From a phage: DNA of 64,000 nucleotides. Below the pieces are notes generated by a model that was given only the letters and a program-made list of their open reading frames with translations, ran no database searches and was not told the origin of the DNA. Position numbers and translations under genes: made by a program. Shown here one piece after another: positions 1 through 61,555 of this stretch (the stretch's first letter is position 1; the number at the start of each line of letters is the position of its first letter). The stretch lies in sequence record OZ346222.1. One strand, written 5' to 3'.

Positions 1-1
1 G

Positions 2-166
2 CCAGTTAGTGCAGAAGGTGGTCCAAACTGGATATACAGCGCATGGAGAAAGGTTGACATTCTCCCAAACCCAGGTAAAGATATGGTAGTTTGGCAGCTT
101 ATCAACAACATCGGGATTCCAATCTTTGATGAAGCTGTTAAAATCTATTTTGAACTTGACGATTAA
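2..166 (+). CDS. 3' end of an upstream gene (partial, hypothetical)
   Basis: Open frame from window edge to TAA at about 164-166, directly before the RBS of the next gene. Confidence 0.35.
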   Translation, partial: PVSAEGGPNWIYSAWRKVDILPNPGKDMVVWQLINNIGIPIFDEAVKIYFELDD

Positions 167-183
167 TATCAGGAGACCTTAAG

Positions 184-429
184 ATGACTGAAGCAGTTGC
201 TCGCGCAGGACAGAAAGTACGTTGTGTTGAAGTAGGTTTTGGTGGCAAAGGGTGTCAAAACTTGACTCAAGGCAAGGAATATGCTGTTATCTCTGGTGGT
301 GGCGACGAAAGTATTGTGTTCGAGGGTCACATCCTGGATGCTGAAAACTTTGAAATCTTTGACGACGATGGGGATCCGATCACCTGCCTGCTGGACGGGA
401 ATTGGGGAACTTTCGAAGTGATTGGCTAA
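184..429 (+). CDS. hypothetical protein (81 aa)
   Basis: Track ORF; AGGAGA RBS upstream of ATG. Confidence 0.6.
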   Translation: MTEAVARAGQKVRCVEVGFGGKGCQNLTQGKEYAVISGGGDESIVFEGHILDAENFEIFDDDGDPITCLLDGNWGTFEVIG

Positions 430-512
430 CAAATACCTATTGTAATTTACAGAAGGGGATGCTAAAATAGTGTCTCCTTCTATGTTGTTCAAATAAAATC
501 GGAGATTCCATA

Positions 513-881
513 ATGGAACAAATGAACGATCAAGAGTCGGTTGCGATGAACGAGCAAGAACAACCTCAAGAATTTTTCTTAGGGTTAAGTAAAGATCAAG
601 TGTCTCTTTTGCTAGTGCTTTCTTCTTTCATGGGAAGACTTCAGGAGCTCACACAACAACCGGAGGCTGAACAATTATTTCAGGCTCTGCGTGAAGAAGA
701 AAAATATCGTCGTTTGGACTATGCCTTAGGTTGGGTAGCTCAACAACGAGATATGCTGATGGCCCTCTCTGGGACCACAAGTTTTGCAATGGGCCTGTTG
801 GCTCAAGTTCAGGACAAATTAATTCAAGCAGGGTTTGCACACACGGCAAACACTAACGAAGAACAAGGAGACAAAGAATGA
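513..881 (+). CDS. hypothetical acidic protein (122 aa)
   Basis: Track ORF; GGAG RBS; stop overlaps next start (ATGA). Confidence 0.6.
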   Translation: MEQMNDQESVAMNEQEQPQEFFLGLSKDQVSLLLVLSSFMGRLQELTQQPEAEQLFQALREEEKYRRLDYALGWVAQQRDMLMALSGTTSFAMGLLAQVQDKLIQAGFAHTANTNEEQGDKE

Positions 882-2092
882 GCGTTATTCAACAATTCGC
901 TAACCCGATGAATCCGCGTGAAACTGTTTTACTGGCTCACGGCATGATTAAACGCGTCAGCATCAAGCCTATCAAAGGTGCTGATCCTACAACAGGTATT
1001 AAAACCACTGTGTGGCAAGGTAAGAAAATTGAATCCAGCCACACCATCTCTTTACTGATTTCTGAACTGGATTCCTCTGATAACCTACTTCAAGGTGGTG
1101 AAGAAGTTTGGATCAGTATGGGCGATAAGCTGCTTAAACCGGGTCATCAAGACTCTGTCTCTGTTAAAATTGATGACAAGTGGGAAACCGTAACGCCAGG
1201 ATGGATCGTAAATATTCCTTTGAAGGCAAACGAGCATAACGGTAAGACCTATTACAAAGGCTCACTGGCTAAGATGGTTAAGCTGGGTGTAGGAGAGGCT
1301 CCAGCAGCGACTCAGCAGCAAAAACAGCAACAAGGTGTACAATCACAAGGCCAGAAGCAGAATGCCAATCAGGACGTTTTACGCATCTATGGCGATGTGA
1401 CTCAGATTGTTGGCAACGTGGTTACTGTCAATGACCACAAGATTGGCGAAGGTGCTATGGTTGTCACCGATGAGCAGCTTAAAGATCTGGTGGTAGGTGG
1501 TCGTGTTGCAGCCATTGTTGACAAAGACACCGGAAACATTATCAGTGGTTTCAAAGCCTACCCCCCTAAGGCAGAGAACGGCACTCAAGGCTCCGGTGGC
1601 AAGCGTAAATCCTCTTACGACCCTATCGGTGTGGAAACGGGGCATAGCATCAATGCGTTGCAGATCATCCTGGATCGCGGGTTTAAGGTAGACGACCCAC
1701 TGGGCGTGGCTAAAACACTGCACGTAGTCACCATTGAGCTTAAGAAAGAGTATGCTCAGGCCACCAACCGAACTGAAGATGAAGTAGGTGCCAGTGTCGG
1801 TAATGCGGTGTTGAACGCTTGTCGCCGTATTGACAAGAAAACGAAAGTTGATGATTTTGCAGCGGCAATTACTGCAGAAGCAAAAGATGTCTTGACTAAT
1901 CTGGCTGAGCCGTTGTACGATTGGATCAAGAACGGTGCTGGGTCAACTGACCATCAAGAACCTCAGGCTACCAAACAGGAAGCAGCTCCACAGCAAAACA
2001 CTGTAGACGCTCCTCCTGTAAATGATGAGGAAGATGACCCAATGGATCAGAATCCAGCACAGTACTCCTTTGATGATGACATCCCTTTTTAA
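878..2092 (+). CDS. SSB-like protein with bacterial SSB-type C-terminal tip (DDDIPF)
   Basis: 404-aa track ORF, translationally coupled to upstream gene; Q-rich linker and acidic tail ending DDDIPF, the hallmark C-terminus of E. coli SSB; OB fold not verifiable by eye. Confidence 0.55.
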   Translation: MSVIQQFANPMNPRETVLLAHGMIKRVSIKPIKGADPTTGIKTTVWQGKKIESSHTISLLISELDSSDNLLQGGEEVWISMGDKLLKPGHQDSVSVKIDDKWETVTPGWIVNIPLKANEHNGKTYYKGSLAKMVKLGVGEAPAATQQQKQQQGVQSQGQKQNANQDVLRIYGDVTQIVGNVVTVNDHKIGEGAMVVTDEQLKDLVVGGRVAAIVDKDTGNIISGFKAYPPKAENGTQGSGGKRKSSYDPIGVETGHSINALQIILDRGFKVDDPLGVAKTLHVVTIELKKEYAQATNRTEDEVGASVGNAVLNACRRIDKKTKVDDFAAAITAEAKDVLTNLAEPLYDWIKNGAGSTDHQEPQATKQEAAPQQNTVDAPPVNDEEDDPMDQNPAQYSFDDDIPF

Positions 2093-2107
2093 CAATTAGT
2101 TAACATA

Positions 2108-2137
2108 GCCCTGCCCGAAAGGGTGGGGCATTTTTAT
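2108..2137 (+). terminator. intrinsic terminator
   Basis: GC stem (CCCTGCCC / GGGTGGGG) followed by TTTTT. Confidence 0.6.
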
Positions 2138-2154
2138 ATAAGGAGATCTGAAAA

Positions 2155-2571
2155 ATGACATTAGAAGATATCATTGTTAAACCTGAGAACTATGACCAAT
2201 ACAACCTGTCAACTCAATCTGTAGACCTTGGATGCGCCACGGTCAGTGCGTGGCCGGTTAACGGAAAAGAGCTAGATAAATGCTTAGAAGCTCACATGTC
2301 TATTAACAAGTTTCTGGATGAAAATACTCACTGGCTTGAGGGTGCAGGAGTATATGCTTCATGGTTGGAGAGTATGGGATTCGACTACCAATCTGAAGAA
2401 GGGTGGTGGAGCTATTTAGCTATCTGTCCAGAGACGCTACAATGCTTCATGAAATACTCTGAAGATTTAGAGTACCGGGCGGTGGTTGATAGTGCTATTG
2501 CCCGTTATAGCCGTAAACCTTTTTCCCACGACATTAAAACTGTGGAAGAGTTTGTTGAAGTTTTCTGTTGA
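2155..2571 (+). CDS. hypothetical protein (138 aa)
   Basis: Track ORF; AAGGAGA RBS. Confidence 0.6.
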   Translation: MTLEDIIVKPENYDQYNLSTQSVDLGCATVSAWPVNGKELDKCLEAHMSINKFLDENTHWLEGAGVYASWLESMGFDYQSEEGWWSYLAICPETLQCFMKYSEDLEYRAVVDSAIARYSRKPFSHDIKTVEEFVEVFC

Positions 2572-2596
2572 CACAGGTTGAAAGGTGTGCAATTAT
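2568..2596 (+). promoter_or_regulatory. sigma70-like promoter
   Basis: TTGACA, 17-nt spacer, AATTAT; overlaps stop of upstream gene. Confidence 0.4.
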
Positions 2597-2667
2597 AACT
2601 TCATATGACTGGAGGACGTGATGAACGAAGAAAACTGGGATGTATAACTAACAGGAGGCCACTGCCC

Positions 2668-2865
2668 ATGATTTATCGAATCCGTGTAAGAGAAGATGCA
2701 CCAGGCTGTTACTTTGACTGGCGTGGGTGGTGGTTTCTCCACCCAATGGATGGACTCACAGATAGAATGCTGGATGCTGCCCTTTATACAGATACCGACA
2801 TAGAGTATAATCTCTATCTGAAGGACGGTATAGATAACGGCCTGTTTGAAGCAATTCCTGTGTAA
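2668..2865 (+). CDS. hypothetical protein (65 aa)
   Basis: Track ORF 2605..2865 trimmed to the ATG that follows an AGGAGG RBS. Confidence 0.5.
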   Translation: MIYRIRVREDAPGCYFDWRGWWFLHPMDGLTDRMLDAALYTDTDIEYNLYLKDGIDNGLFEAIPV

Positions 2866-2933
2866 GAGACTGTGATAGCTATGTTTTATGATCTTCCTGT
2901 AGCGCCACCACCTGTTGAACCCGGAGAACTAAG

Positions 2934-3359
2934 ATGATCTATGAAATGCCAAAACTGATTCGTGACGATGCCCAAAACGCTCACACCATTATTATGGGCA
3001 AACGCATGGATATTATTTGTCATAAAGATTTCTGGGAAGGAAGTTACTTCACAGAGTATTTTGGTAAACTGGATAATGGTCTGCTGATCCAGTTCTACAC
3101 CGATGCGGAAAACAACATTCCCTGGGAGTTCGAAACTGAAGATATTCATAAACTTTTCACCTTCCTCGATATTAAGGTTAAGGCCAAGTTTGAAGAGGGT
3201 GAGTGCGACGATTGTGGATTTTATGAGGTAACAGATTTCTATCTTCCAAGTGGTAAGAACCTTTACTATGAAAGCCACTTCGGTAACTCAAATATGCCAC
3301 AGTGCTGGACTGAGTTTTTTGAAATTGTGGAAGAGGAGCTGGCATATCGTGATTATTGA
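2934..3359 (+). CDS. hypothetical protein (141 aa)
   Basis: Track ORF; GGAGA RBS. Confidence 0.55.
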   Translation: MIYEMPKLIRDDAQNAHTIIMGKRMDIICHKDFWEGSYFTEYFGKLDNGLLIQFYTDAENNIPWEFETEDIHKLFTFLDIKVKAKFEEGECDDCGFYEVTDFYLPSGKNLYYESHFGNSNMPQCWTEFFEIVEEELAYRDY

Positions 3360-3807
3360 TACTGTAGAGGGAGATTTAATCTCCCTTTTTAAGAGCGGTG
3401 CTGGTCACCTGATCCACGGTTGTAACTGCTTCCACACAATGGGTAAGGGTGTAGCAAAACAGATTGCCCGTGAGTTCCCTCAAGCATTGGAAGCTGATAA
3501 AATGACTATGCACGGTTGCCTAAGTAAACTGGGCGCGTTCTCCCGCTGGGAGCACTTATCTCCGAGAGGTATTGTCTACGGAATAAATCTGTATACTCAG
3601 TTCTACCCAGGGCCTAATGCTGAATATTTCTCAATACTGAAAGGCTTTGAGCGAGTCAATGAAGTATTTGAGGGGTCGATTTTACCATTCTACATCCCTA
3701 AGATCGGGTGCGGCATAGGTGGTTTGAAGTGGGAACATGTAGAGGACATTATTAACCTTGCCACTTTTGATATAGATATTATCGTGGTGGAGTACAAAGA
3801 GTGTTGA
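3250..3807 (+). CDS. macro-domain-like protein (putative ADP-ribose binding/processing)
   Basis: Track ORF; glycine-rich segments HGCNCFHTMGKGVAKQIA and KIGCGIGG resemble macro domain loops; start uncertain because the 5' end overlaps the upstream ORF. Confidence 0.5.
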   Translation: MVRTFTMKATSVTQICHSAGLSFLKLWKRSWHIVIIDTVEGDLISLFKSGAGHLIHGCNCFHTMGKGVAKQIAREFPQALEADKMTMHGCLSKLGAFSRWEHLSPRGIVYGINLYTQFYPGPNAEYFSILKGFERVNEVFEGSILPFYIPKIGCGIGGLKWEHVEDIINLATFDIDIIVVEYKEC

Positions 3808-3832
3808 CAGCTATATTTTAAGATGGTATAGT
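3804..3832 (+). promoter_or_regulatory. sigma70-like promoter
   Basis: TTGACA, 17-nt spacer, TATAGT. Confidence 0.5.
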
Positions 3833-3861
3833 CGCCACAACGATTAAGACAGAGGAGCACT

Positions 3862-4056
3862 ATGGAGACTAAAATCTTAATTCTAGCTGTGATAGATACA
3901 ACAGAAGGAGCCATGTTTGAATCTGCAGGAGGGTATTTCTACCTGCCCTATGGAAAAAGAACTTCCGAGCCGAGTAAAGATTCAATCCTTAAAGTGTTCC
4001 CGTGTGCTTTCTGGCTGGAGATCTTGGTAGAAGATTGCAGAGGACTAGGGAGATAA
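3862..4056 (+). CDS. hypothetical protein (64 aa)
   Basis: Track ORF; GAGGAG RBS. Confidence 0.5.
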   Translation: METKILILAVIDTTEGAMFESAGGYFYLPYGKRTSEPSKDSILKVFPCAFWLEILVEDCRGLGR

Positions 4057-4058
4057 TT

Positions 4059-4253
4059 ATGAGAAACAAGAAAGAGCTTTACTCTGGTGAGTGGATAAAC
4101 GATCAACAGGTAGGAGAGGTAACCTGCTTCCGGTGCTTTACTAGGTACAATCTTAAAACTGCACCAAAAAGTGTTCCAAAGACTGACGGTTATTACATAA
4201 AAGAACCTCATTGCCCAAAATGCAAATGCCGATTATACTGGAGTAACCTGTAA
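4059..4253 (+). CDS. small zinc-ribbon protein (64 aa)
   Basis: Track ORF 4002..4253 trimmed to internal ATG; CxxC...CPKCKC pairs. Confidence 0.5.
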   Translation: MRNKKELYSGEWINDQQVGEVTCFRCFTRYNLKTAPKSVPKTDGYYIKEPHCPKCKCRLYWSNL

Positions 4254-4257
4254 AAGA

Positions 4258-4285
4258 TTGACATCTGAAAACTGCGGTGTATAAT
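4258..4285 (+). promoter_or_regulatory. sigma70-like promoter
   Basis: TTGACA, 16-nt spacer, TATAAT. Confidence 0.6.
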
Positions 4286-4316
4286 ATAAACATAAACTAG
4301 CAGAGAGTGATATATT

Positions 4317-4508
4317 ATGGTAATTTTTAATCGAGACGGTATCATAGTTAGACAGCACCCATTCCTTGAATACTATCAAATTGAGCAATGGTGCTACGGG
4401 GATTGCAGTCACTCCTATGGGCAAAGTTGGGGATATCGCACAGTTTTTGAATCAACAGATCTTGATAAGGTAAGACAGAAAGTTTTAGAACTTATTAACA
4501 ACAAGTGA
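4317..4508 (+). CDS. hypothetical protein (63 aa)
   Basis: Track ORF downstream of consensus promoter. Confidence 0.55.
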   Translation: MVIFNRDGIIVRQHPFLEYYQIEQWCYGDCSHSYGQSWGYRTVFESTDLDKVRQKVLELINNK

Positions 4509-4515
4509 GTATGAT

Positions 4516-4851
4516 ATGGTAACATTAGAAAGACGTAAAGCTATCGCCGCCACACTGGCAGACATCTTTTGGGAGTGCAATTTAAAAGATACCCGATATT
4601 GTGGCGCATCTGTAGATGCATTATTCCCACGGCCCACTATTGTTGCAATGGGAAACCTGTCAAACGTGGTGTATGGAGCATGGGACAAAGAAGGTGGATT
4701 TTATATCTGGCAACCTGACTACGGGACCTGGAAAGAGGTAAGGGGTGCGGATGACTTTGGGCCTGCAGTTGCCAAAACGATGGATGGCTGGAAAATCTAT
4801 GTCGGTAACGACATGAAGCTGAAAGGCGAGATTGTTTACTGGTTACCTTAA
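4516..4851 (+). CDS. hypothetical protein (111 aa)
   Basis: Track ORF in co-oriented array. Confidence 0.55.
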   Translation: MVTLERRKAIAATLADIFWECNLKDTRYCGASVDALFPRPTIVAMGNLSNVVYGAWDKEGGFYIWQPDYGTWKEVRGADDFGPAVAKTMDGWKIYVGNDMKLKGEIVYWLP

Positions 4852-4872
4852 TAAAACGCAGGAGATAAAGTT

Positions 4873-5118
4873 ATGAACAAAGGGTGGACATTTGTAGACG
4901 GCGTTAAAAACATGCCTCTAGGAAAGTATATTGTAGCCATGGCAGATGAGAATGGCAAGGTGGATTTCGGAGTTTGCGAGGTTGTTCTTGCAGGATCTGG
5001 TGACTATGCTCACAAAACTGGGATAATTAACGGTCATTTCTACTTTGATTACAACCCTGTTGTGGCGTATATGGCTATGCCAGAGTTCGAGCTCCCAAAG
5101 GAGGGTGCGGATGTTTAA
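4873..5118 (+). CDS. hypothetical protein (81 aa)
   Basis: Track ORF; GGAGA RBS. Confidence 0.55.
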   Translation: MNKGWTFVDGVKNMPLGKYIVAMADENGKVDFGVCEVVLAGSGDYAHKTGIINGHFYFDYNPVVAYMAMPEFELPKEGADV

Positions 5119-5308
5119 GCTTAAATCTGCATGGAACATCGCTGTGGGGGACGAGATCCGCATCCCAGGTGGAAAGACCATTATGAAGATATCTCGTATC
5201 GAGTACGAAGGTGATCGTGTATTTCATATCTTTGCAGAAGATGGTCGAGAAATTTATATACAGGCAGGCTCTCACATCTATATTCGTAAGAAAGGGGACG
5301 ACAAATGA
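5111..5308 (+). CDS. hypothetical protein (65 aa)
   Basis: Track ORF 5045..5308 trimmed to ATG after AAGGAGGG RBS. Confidence 0.45.
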   Translation: MFKLKSAWNIAVGDEIRIPGGKTIMKISRIEYEGDRVFHIFAEDGREIYIQAGSHIYIRKKGDDK

Positions 5309-5634
5309 CAGAGATCATCATTTCAACTGCAGGGTATGTGTTCCTGACAATCATTGCACTGACCATTCTGGTGGTGGTATATGGAATTGTTATTCTCCCT
5401 ATTCTTGAGACAATTAGTTTGTGTCGGTGTTGGAGAAAGGCTTACGGTCCACAGCCGTGGAAGGACTGGCCCCACCTGGTGCACATAGCGTTCTCTTATG
5501 CTTATGATCACGCCAGCAGTGCATGCATAACCGGGTATCACGCCCACAACTGGAGCTGGGAAGGGTTGAGGAAATGGAATGTTACAAAGACCATACCTCT
5601 GCGCATGTACAAACCTAAAAACAAAGACAGCTGA
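5305..5634 (+). CDS. membrane protein (109 aa)
   Basis: Track ORF; ATGA coupling; hydrophobic N-terminal helix. Confidence 0.55.
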   Translation: MTEIIISTAGYVFLTIIALTILVVVYGIVILPILETISLCRCWRKAYGPQPWKDWPHLVHIAFSYAYDHASSACITGYHAHNWSWEGLRKWNVTKTIPLRMYKPKNKDS

Positions 5635-5947
5635 TACTTGAAAATCCCTGGCATATCAAGTGTAAGGAGGATTTCTAAAATGGATTTCCTCCTTTTGATA
5701 TTTCACCGGGCCAGATATTTTAAAATTCTTAGAAAATCAGAAAATGGATCGAAAACTAAAATGGATTTTTCAAGACAGGCACGATAAGATGTGCTGCTCA
5801 TTCTATCGTTCGCACCGTACTTTAAGTCACTATTCCAGATTTTTCCGCACATACTCTCACCCTTCTACCAGAACTTTCCCAGCTTACCTCTGACCTTTTA
5901 TAACAATAAGTCCATTATTATCAGAAAGTTTCGGCACATCTCTTTCG

Positions 5948-6140
5948 GTACTCGATCTGTTTTTCATTTCAAAGACCTGATTTTCTGAAAATTTTTCTCG
6001 ATAAATTTCTTAGTACTCGATCTGTTTTTCATTTCAAAGACCTGATTTTCTGAAAATTTTTCTCGATAAATTTCTTAGTACTCGATCTGTTTTTCGTTTT
6101 CTGAATCGGATTTTCTGGAAATCGTTCCAGCTCTCGACCT
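5948..6140. repeat. tandem direct repeat, about 64-bp unit, two full copies plus a diverged third
   Basis: Unit GTACTCGATCTGTTTTTCATTTCAAAGACCTGATTTTCTGAAAATTTTTCTCGATAAATTTCTTA repeated exactly twice, third copy diverges. Confidence 0.8.
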
Positions 6141-60742: not shown

Positions 60743-60817
60743 GCCCTGTTAGCTTAGTGGATAAAGCAGCGGCCTTCTAAGCCGTTGACACTGGTTCGAG
60801 TCCAGTACGGGGTGCCA
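60743..60817 (+). tRNA. tRNA-Arg (anticodon TCT)
   Basis: Manual fold: 7-bp acceptor with G-U pairs, anticodon loop CTTCTAA, T-loop TTCGAGT, 3' CCA encoded. Confidence 0.7.
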
Positions 60818-60821
60818 AATT

Positions 60822-60908
60822 GGGGAGTTATCCCGTAGAGGTAGCGGTGTAGACTGTAAATCTATTGTCATTGCGACTCGGGTGGTTCGACTCCACCACT
60901 CCCCACCA
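60822..60908 (+). tRNA. tRNA-Tyr (anticodon GTA), long variable arm
   Basis: Acceptor GGGGAGT/ACTCCCC, anticodon loop CTGTAAA, long extra arm, T-loop TTCGACT, CCA encoded. Confidence 0.75.
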
Positions 60909-61022
60909 AATTTATATTTTTAGATGCATAAATAATACAGATAATGGCATTGATATTTATCGTCGTTTATACTAGTCACTAACTGCTCGAAAATCAGTGT
61001 CATTATCAGTATAATTTATAAA

Positions 61023-61113
61023 GGAGGGTAGGGAGCAATGGTGCTCAAGCGGTATTGAAAACCGTCCCGTTGAGGATGACTCGATGATGGTTCGATTCCA
61101 TTACTCTCCGCCA
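61023..61113 (+). tRNA. tRNA-Ser (anticodon TGA), long variable arm
   Basis: Acceptor GGAGGGT/ACTCTCC, anticodon loop ATTGAAA, about 20-nt extra arm, T-loop TTCGATT, CCA encoded. Confidence 0.7.
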
Positions 61114-61211
61114 CATTGTTGACCTTGTAATTAAGCGAAAGCCGGAAGCAGAACCGGATTATCAAATGTTACAGTCGTCATCGCCGACTAGCAACATGGT
61201 CAACATACTGA

Positions 61212-61308
61212 GCTAGGTAAGCCCTTTGGCAAGGGCGAGGATTTTTAATCCTGAAAATAGACGAGGTAGTCGTTGAATACATAGGTGGTTCGATTCCATC
61301 ACCTAGCA
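61212..61308 (+). tRNA. atypical tRNA-like gene (possible anticodon TTT) with about 30-nt extra arm
   Basis: Acceptor GCTAGGT/ACCTAGC, D-arm GCCC/GGGC, 4-bp anticodon stem with loop TTTTTAA, T-arm GGTGG TTCGATT CCATC; no CCA; extra region too long for a canonical tRNA. Confidence 0.35.
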
Positions 61309-61315
61309 CCTTTTT

Positions 61316-61391
61316 GCTGATGTAGCACAATCGGTAGTGCAATTGATTTGTAATCAATAGGTTGTAGGTTCAAGTCCTGCCATCAGCACCA
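61316..61391 (+). tRNA. tRNA-Thr (anticodon TGT)
   Basis: Acceptor GCTGATG/CATCAGC, anticodon stem ATTGA/TCAAT with loop TTTGTAA, T-loop TTCAAGT, CCA encoded. Confidence 0.75.
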
Positions 61392-61392
61392 A

Positions 61393-61467
61393 GGCCCTGT
61401 AGCTGGAAGGTTCAAGCAAGCGACTCATAATCGCCAGACGGTGGTTCAATTCCACCCAGGGCCACCA
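61393..61467 (+). tRNA. tRNA-Met or Ile2 (anticodon CAT), elongator type
   Basis: Acceptor GGCCCTG/CAGGGCC (G1-C72 paired), anticodon loop CTCATAA, T-loop TTCAATT, CCA encoded. Confidence 0.7.
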
Positions 61468-61478
61468 AATAGTAAATA

Positions 61479-61555
61479 CTCCGCGTAGCTCAGCTTGGTA
61501 GAGCGCCTGATTTGGGATCAGGAGGTCGAGTGTTCGAATCACTCCGTGGAGACCA
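61479..61555 (+). tRNA. tRNA-Pro (anticodon TGG)
   Basis: Acceptor CTCCGCG/CGTGGAG, anticodon stem CCTGA/TCAGG with loop TTTGGGA, T-loop TTCGAAT, CCA encoded. Confidence 0.75.

Follow-up and report, generated by a model that had tools for sequence, protein, structure and literature searches.

Here, we describe the gene of a putative SSB (a protein that binds single-stranded DNA) in a 64,000-nucleotide stretch of phage DNA (sequence record OZ346222.1), referred to below as the window. Positions 1–6000 of the window are ~95% identical to the rV5-like coliphages of the genus Vequintavirus (FFH2, HdK5, and several BASEL phages), and by this sequence likeness the source is an rV5-like Vequintavirus. 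The gene (878–2092, plus strand; PHROG 4477) starts with ATG, ends with a TAA stop codon at 2090–2092, and encodes 404 amino acids, which we call the SSB-like protein. Synteny and alignment identify it as the ortholog of Bas52_0087 and HdK5_00042. The C-terminal sequence reads ...NPAQYSFDDDIPF, followed by TAA; the final residues of the open reading frame product are ...DEEDDPMDQNPAQYSFDDDIPF, of which the last letters are YSFDDDIPF.

An intrinsic terminator (2108–2136, plus strand) lies immediately downstream, consisting of a hairpin at 2108–2129 (9-base-pair stem, seven GC pairs) and a T-run. The hairpin begins 15 nucleotides 3′ of the stop codon, and a terminator is also annotated at this place in HdK5. 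With TAA and terminator directly after it, Phe404 truly is the free C-terminal residue here; readthrough into a hidden extension is ruled out by the unrelated sequence and the terminator 3′ of the stop. The terminator closes a two-gene unit formed by the SSB-like gene and an upstream gene of 122 codons (513–881, plus strand), whose stop overlaps the SSB-like start in the sequence ATGA. A terminator 5′ of the 122-codon gene is annotated in HdK5, and in related genomes the two genes form a unit between annotated terminators. A search for the promoter of this unit gave five consensus matches against 3.9 expected by chance, which is no excess.

The last seven residues of the SSB-like protein, FDDDIPF (nucleotides 2069–2089), are the last seven of the E. 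coli SSB. A preliminary description of the window had singled out the DDDIPF ending of the 404-residue product of 878–2092 as the E. coli SSB tip, and both the translation of the reading frame and BLASTP agree, with seven residues identical. In the BLASTP comparison, only the tail aligns. The tip ends an acidic, P/Q-rich tail (res. 355–404; 1940–2089, plus strand) with a net charge of −12, whose 50 residues are rich in P, Q, and N and predicted to be disordered. The same description had noted an acidic, proline-containing tail and a glutamine-rich linker, and both are present, the latter at residues 140–165, with extra Q and P also within the tail proper. An ending of the form [DE][DE]x[ILVM]PF occurs in only one of the 508 stop-to-stop segments of at least 50 amino acids in the window, and this one is the SSB-like protein. 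From composition, 7e-6 DDDIPF endings and 4e-7 FDDDIPF endings would be expected in the window; the tip is no chance event.

The tip is shared by the family to which the SSB-like protein belongs, in orthologs and in distant homologs alike. Among 134 family representatives, proline is found at P403 in 94% and phenylalanine at F404 in 93%, and these two positions match the two critical residues of the E. coli SSB. A Pro-Phe ending closes 151/202 collected members, mostly as D-D-x-[I/V/L]-P-F, and the remaining members are mostly truncated fragments or near-variants ending in IPW, LDF, or VAF. Many members, for example that of phAPEC8, carry PPMDFDDDIPF, an 11-residue ending that the E. coli SSB has as well. 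Given this family-wide conservation, the tip is ancient and under selection throughout the family, and rV5-like phages did not acquire it recently.

We modeled the SSB-like protein using AlphaFold2 with the family alignment, which yielded three folded domains separated or followed by disordered segments (res. 140–165, 233–246, and 355–404); modeling of a homolog with 44% identity gave this layout again. The N-terminal domain (res. 1–139; 878–1294, plus strand) is predicted to adopt an all-β OB fold and is basic, with an isoelectric point of 9.1; its family-conserved residues are G22, T/S54-H55, K97, W102, and G108. The Q-rich linker (res. 140–165; 1295–1372, plus strand) has a predicted local distance difference test score (pLDDT) below 50. 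It leads to a second, small OB/S1-like barrel (res. 166–232; 1373–1573, plus strand) built of β1–3, a short helix, and β4–5, which is present in only about a quarter of the family members (column occupancy 0.25). A four-helix domain (res. 247–354; 1616–1939, plus strand) precedes the tail and is modeled at pLDDT ~82–92, with an occupancy of 0.92. This domain is the best-conserved part of the family, with D248, G251, G255, H256, N259, G304, and G308 as conserved positions; among the 134 representatives, Asp is found at D248 in 83%, and G255 and G308 are kept in 94% and 99%, respectively.

Structure prediction was the check for OB folds proposed in the preliminary description, and the models contain two OB-like barrels, so that at the level of predicted structure the OB fold is present. 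Foldseek returned no significant match in the PDB. The weak PDB matches belong to one class, namely IF1, eIF5A, RPA, the SSB of lactococcal phage p2, and DUF2815, and against BFVD strong scores were obtained only for uncharacterized relatives. The matches to barrels of IF1/RPA14 size cover 67–72 columns at a root-mean-square deviation of 3.5–4.2 and are tied to the second barrel by size only. The resemblance to DUF2815, which is gp2.5-like, is likewise weak (E = 0.19 for PDB entry 4klk and E = 0.023 for a DUF2815 protein in BFVD).

The phrog_4477 profile matches the SSB-like protein over residues 1–404 at E = 7.5e-172. A profile search of 1.84 billion cluster representatives retrieved 226 clusters at E ≤ 1e-3, 163 of them at E ≤ 1e-10. 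Most members measure 260–300 amino acids and contain only the N-terminal OB and helical domains, and tblastn places the family in the Vequintavirinae and Stephanstirmvirinae; it also takes in relatives of these. The window protein has the features that recur in the family, namely the N-terminal OB domain, the helical domain with D248, G255, H256, N259, and G308, and an acidic tail ending in P-F. Judged by sequence, the SSB-like protein is a member of the Bas52_0087/PHROG 4477 family and not of the bacterial SSB family.

In the genomes of relatives, the SSB-like gene lies a few kilobases downstream of the genes for a primase/helicase and a DNA polymerase, on the same strand. Its ortholog is labeled "hypothetical" in most records, "putative SSB" in phage JLBYU08, and a shorter homolog is named "SSB" in some phAPEC8/phi92-type records. 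JLBYU08, a near-identical phage, encodes a primase/helicase, a family A polymerase, a ligase, an RNase H, and exonucleases, and among its 236 annotated features no SSB is named besides the SSB-like gene and its upstream neighbor.

This neighbor, the 122-codon gene, encodes an acidic protein (PHROG 7310, function unassigned), and in three genera of the Vequintavirinae it is kept immediately 5′ of the SSB-like gene. In Seunavirus, in Mydovirus, and in one metagenomic relative, it occupies this place with blastp E values of 1e-10 to 1e-15. It is a possible partner of the SSB-like protein. A partner shared with phAPEC8 was considered and dropped, as no similarity was found there and the gene is conserved only within the Vequintavirinae. 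The record of JLBYU08 tags the 122-codon gene, too, as "putative SSB", a label for which we saw no support.

The closest characterized relative is Bas52_0087 (QXV84166.1) of phage RudolfGeigy/Bas52 (MZ501102). It is syntenic with the window gene, identical in 402/408 aligned columns (99%), and ends in the same FDDDIPF tip; compared with it, the window protein lacks four residues and carries two substitutions within or adjacent to the Q-rich linker, the indel in the linker being the main difference. DRT10, a defense system composed of a UG17 reverse transcriptase, a non-coding RNA, and a SLATT effector, is the subject of an April 2026 preprint on bioRxiv (10.64898/2026.04.29.721553). The preprint calls Bas52_0087 an "SSB-like" trigger of DRT10 whose FDDDIPF ending copies the C-tip of the E. 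coli SSB. Both Bas52 mutants that escape DRT10 carry a substitution in bas52_0087, either D252V or Y351C, and added wild-type Bas52_0087 strengthens restriction by DRT10. Bas52_0087 alone neither triggers DRT10 nor affects the viability of E. coli. When exonuclease I (SbcB) is overexpressed, DRT10 restricts Bas52 less strongly, and the authors speculate on competition with SbcB (10.64898/2026.04.29.721553). The system restricts Vequintavirinae and Stephanstirmvirinae, the same subfamilies in which tblastn finds the SSB-like family. No ssDNA-binding or partner-binding assay of Bas52_0087 was found in the preprint.

Given the 4-residue indel in the alignment, the Bas52 escape sites D252 and Y351 correspond to D248 (nucleotides 1619–1621) and Y347 (nucleotides 1916–1918) of the window protein, and in our model both fall within the four-helix domain. 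The description of Bas52_0087 in the preprint (two OB folds, a disordered C-terminus, and a host-like C-tip) agrees with our models. The escape sites are assigned there to a "putative oligomerization interface", and a separate four-helix domain does not appear in the text, whereas here both sites lie in such a domain. As the preprint deals with a 99%-identical protein, the idea put forward in the preliminary description is already in the literature. What we add is the four-helix domain with its escape sites, the family-wide conservation of the tip, a Pro-Phe tail on the primase/helicase, and a portable extension beyond the tip; in the parts of the preprint consulted we found no family-wide survey, primase/helicase tail, or post-tip extension. 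Other defense papers that name Vequintavirinae together with SSB proved to be about other proteins.

The DnaB-type primase/helicase of the Vequintavirinae and their relatives has an acidic tail with a terminal P-F in 111/120 homologs, down to ~42% identity. The ending is ...PGFEDDETPF in Bas52 and JLBYU08 and ...MDEDTPF in SSE121. Genes of this kind lie upstream of the region covered by the window, and in the related contigs they map to 3–1691 of L007 (Bas52), 2480–2656 of L002, 1518–3581 of L010, and 2657–4666 of L014. The phage polymerase belongs to family A. In phage T7, a basic patch on the family A polymerase is the docking site both for the acidic, Phe-terminated tail of the SSB gp2.5 and for that of the primase/helicase gp4 (PMC12339929), and the tail of the HK620 SSB is required to stimulate Sak4, a protein of the phage itself (PMC5928155).

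Part of the family continues for ~15 residues past the tip, with the pattern AP(I/V)GLQY....(H/Y)A(I/L), an extension that the window phage lacks. Tip and extension together were located in six contigs (L009, 3630–3730; L008, 3700–3772; L011, 12001–13230; L013, 125–1345; L016, 1075–1581; L017, 1033–1581). In L009, the extension is followed by a terminator, and in L008 its coding sequence overlaps that of a Cys-rich gene inserted there. We considered that the extension might be an artifact of an inserted homing-endonuclease gene, which is ruled out by its presence also where no gene is inserted; the extension is a genuine alternative ending. Tip and extension are also found on canonical bacterial-type SSBs of unrelated phages, namely gene 30 of Salmonella phage g341c and gp39 of Vibrio phage BT-1011, and both of these SSB genes adjoin Erf-type recombinases. 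In Mydovirus, the PF of the primase/helicase likewise runs on into the APIGLQY extension. Between this enzyme and the SSB-like protein, the extension does not co-vary strictly but only in part: both proteins have it in Mydovirus, and the SSB-like protein alone in SSE121. Docking of the extension onto the folded body is not supported either, the model of one bearer (P0044) having it disordered, and no literature containing the motif strings of the extension was found. The pockets of SSB partner proteins hold the terminal Phe by its free carboxylate. As the extension would bury this group, it should mask or redirect the tip.

The Cys-rich gene in L008 (3744–4367) is an extra reading frame of 207 codons that occurs in some rV5-like genomes. 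Its insertion point corresponds to window position ~2093–2154, with the SSB-like gene on one side and the ortholog of the gene at 2155–2571 on the other, and its start overlaps the extended SSB-like 3′ end. It resembles a homing-endonuclease gene, with no Pfam match on record.

We read the SSB-like protein as the replicative or recombinational SSB of the phage, belonging to a phage-specific family and of non-canonical build, and we put the probability of this reading at about 0.65. The reading rests on the domain architecture, on the lack of another annotated SSB in JLBYU08, on the replisome genes, on the range of phages restricted by DRT10, and on the existence of other defenses triggered by SSBs. 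We did not go higher because the fold evidence is modest and ssDNA binding is something we infer. No SSB-family profile was found for the folded part in Pfam, NCBIfam, PHROGs, or PDB sequences. The profile searches were run with the whole protein, with single domains, and with a 26-sequence profile, and beyond PHROG 4477, annotated as "unknown function", they returned only faint matches confined to the tail. The bacterial SSB family PF00436 gave no match at E up to 1, TIGR00621 scored 11.6 bits against a cut-off of 53.95 with an alignment limited to the tail region, and the tail of the E. coli SSB (E = 3.3) was all that the PDB sequence searches brought up. In our models, the protein thus has an SSB-like layout of basic OB domain, disordered linker, and acidic tip, without detectable sequence relation to bacterial SSB. 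Of the two options raised in the preliminary description, a phage SSB with a host-type tip is the one that stands in part, supported by prediction and context: the predicted OB barrels, the layout, the position in the replication block, the lack of another annotated SSB in JLBYU08, and the preprint speak for it.

Under this reading, the basic N-terminal OB fold would bind ssDNA, helped in the lineage of the window phage by the inserted second small barrel, and the four-helix domain may mediate self-association or another conserved contact. The 50-residue acidic tail would present a free ...FDDDIPF-COOH that docks into pockets of partner proteins. Since its tip equals that of the host SSB, a coat of the SSB-like protein on phage ssDNA could then draw in SSB-interacting proteins of the host, exonuclease I among them, or compete for them. 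The tip probably also couples the SSB-like protein to the phage family A DNA polymerase, as in T7, because the primase/helicase has a similar acidic Pro-Phe tail.

The second option of the preliminary description was a tail mimic that titrates host partners. As such a decoy, the protein would use its host-identical tip to draw exonuclease I, RecQ, RecJ, PriA, the χ subunit of Pol III, and others away from the host SSB, crippling host replication or repair, or protecting phage DNA ends, with no need to bind ssDNA. An exact copy of the host tip is what a decoy would require, and the effect of SbcB overexpression on DRT10 restriction, together with the competition on which the authors of the preprint speculate, fits as well. 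However, a simple decoy has no need of the OB and helical body that is conserved alongside the tip over ~226 clusters, nor of an N-terminal OB domain that is basic like DNA binders. The phage moreover has a replisome of its own with no other SSB annotated, and strong titration of essential partners should harm the cell, whereas expression of Bas52_0087 alone left viability unaffected. The body kept with the tip throughout the family and the harmlessness of the Bas52 protein alone make the decoy the less likely of the two options, and we consider it improbable. Still a little less probable is that the protein mediates recombination or anneals single strands, being either RecO-like in its combination of OB and helical parts or annealing in the manner of gp2.5, in place of acting as the replicative SSB. 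The likeness to RecO is a generic OB-plus-helical resemblance only; no RecO family profile matched, and a RecO-type protein binds the SSB tip, whereas the SSB-like protein carries it.

A different question concerns the main partner of the tip, and its answer is compatible with the protein being the phage SSB. The tip might work mainly within the phage replisome, where the Pro-Phe tails of both the SSB-like protein and the primase/helicase would dock on the family A polymerase like those of T7 gp2.5 and gp4 (PMC12339929); identity with the host tip would then be of secondary weight, a product of like chemistry or of a recombination event that brought in a borrowed tail. The acidic P-F tails of most primase/helicase homologs point in this direction, as do the composite ending common to the two proteins in Mydovirus VIK251 (PF plus APIGLxY...) and the action of the HK620 SSB tail on the phage Sak4 (PMC5928155). 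But the match to the host far exceeds "acidic plus Phe", with FDDDIPF here and PPMDFDDDIPF in phAPEC8 and many other members. Position −3 of the primase/helicase is T, S, or E and not I, V, or L, the phAPEC8 primase/helicase lacks the tail, and the genetics reported in the preprint tie the SSB-like protein to host SbcB. We therefore hold a mainly replisomal role as a serious but minority possibility. The exact copy of the host tip and the SbcB genetics argue for host SSB-interacting proteins as clients of the tip. The preliminary description had left out a possible service of the tip to the replisome of the phage itself, which the Pro-Phe tail of the primase/helicase suggests. More speculatively, the two roles may be combined: acidic Pro-Phe tails could form a docking code of the replisome for the family A polymerase, the tail of the SSB-like protein could in addition be an exact host-tip copy that captures exonuclease I and others, a perturbation sensed by DRT10, and the post-tip peptide, which occurs on three kinds of protein (members of the family, canonical phage SSBs, and a primase/helicase), could be a portable unit by which the tip is masked or redirected.

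Read as the phage SSB, the SSB-like protein can be set beside several known systems. With T7 gp2.5 it would share an OB fold, a Phe-ended acidic tail, and as partners a family A polymerase and a fused DnaB-type primase/helicase whose tail is similar. It differs in lacking any sequence match (no Pfam match), in its larger size and extra domains, and in its exact host SSB tip. With the bacterial SSB (E. coli Ssb; PF00436/TIGR00621) and its phage and plasmid copies (P1 Ssb, Salmonella phage g341c gene 30, and Vibrio phage BT-1011 gp39) it shares the layout of OB fold, disordered P/Q-rich linker, and acidic tip, but the folded part has no detectable sequence homology, and an OB barrel and the conserved four-helix domain are added. 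The defense systems Retron-Eco8, AbpAB, Hna, and DRT9 offer a functional parallel, for in each of these, too, an abortive-infection system is reported to sense a phage protein that binds ssDNA. Their triggers come from other SSB families, whereas in the present case DRT10 does the sensing and the sites of escape are in a helical domain.

Several further features were recorded in the window and its relatives. A macro-domain protein resembling O-acetyl-ADP-ribose deacetylase is annotated in relatives ~1.3 kilobases 3′ of the SSB-like gene (window ~3350–3807, plus strand), surrounded by small genes of unknown function. A tRNA-like gene of 97–99 nucleotides with a variable arm of ~26 nucleotides lies at 61212–61310 (plus strand), within a tRNA cluster at 60743–61555. 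ARAGORN assigns it a four-base anticodon, the GenBank ortholog in JLBYU08 is labeled "tRNA-Stop(tta)", and an Rfam alignment places UUU at the anticodon; purely hypothetically, suppression of UAA by such a tRNA would allow readthrough of the TAA of the SSB-like gene. Finally, 16–21 unannotated GenBank records of the MG0656xx series, named "Campylobacter phage" (host C. jejuni) and matched by window positions 1–6000, are ~95% identical to E. coli rV5-like phages, and their assignment to C. jejuni looks doubtful.

The core of the idea of a phage SSB with a host-type tip has been published, and the value added here lies mainly in the family-wide view and in the parallel between the replisome tails, where the Pro-Phe tail of the primase/helicase provides a testable link to the logic of the T7 replisome. 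A further point is that, as the family shows, a protein body unrelated to SSB can bear the SSB tip. If the protein is indeed a phage SSB whose tip engages host partners, rV5-like and phi92/phAPEC8-like phages would coat their ssDNA in the "SSB language" of the host, and host nucleases, helicases, and restart proteins would be recruited to, or starved at, phage DNA. This would explain why DRT10, tuned by exonuclease I, senses the SSB-like protein. As collections for therapy and biocontrol commonly include such phages, the SSB-like protein would then be a determinant of their sensitivity to a widespread defense system.
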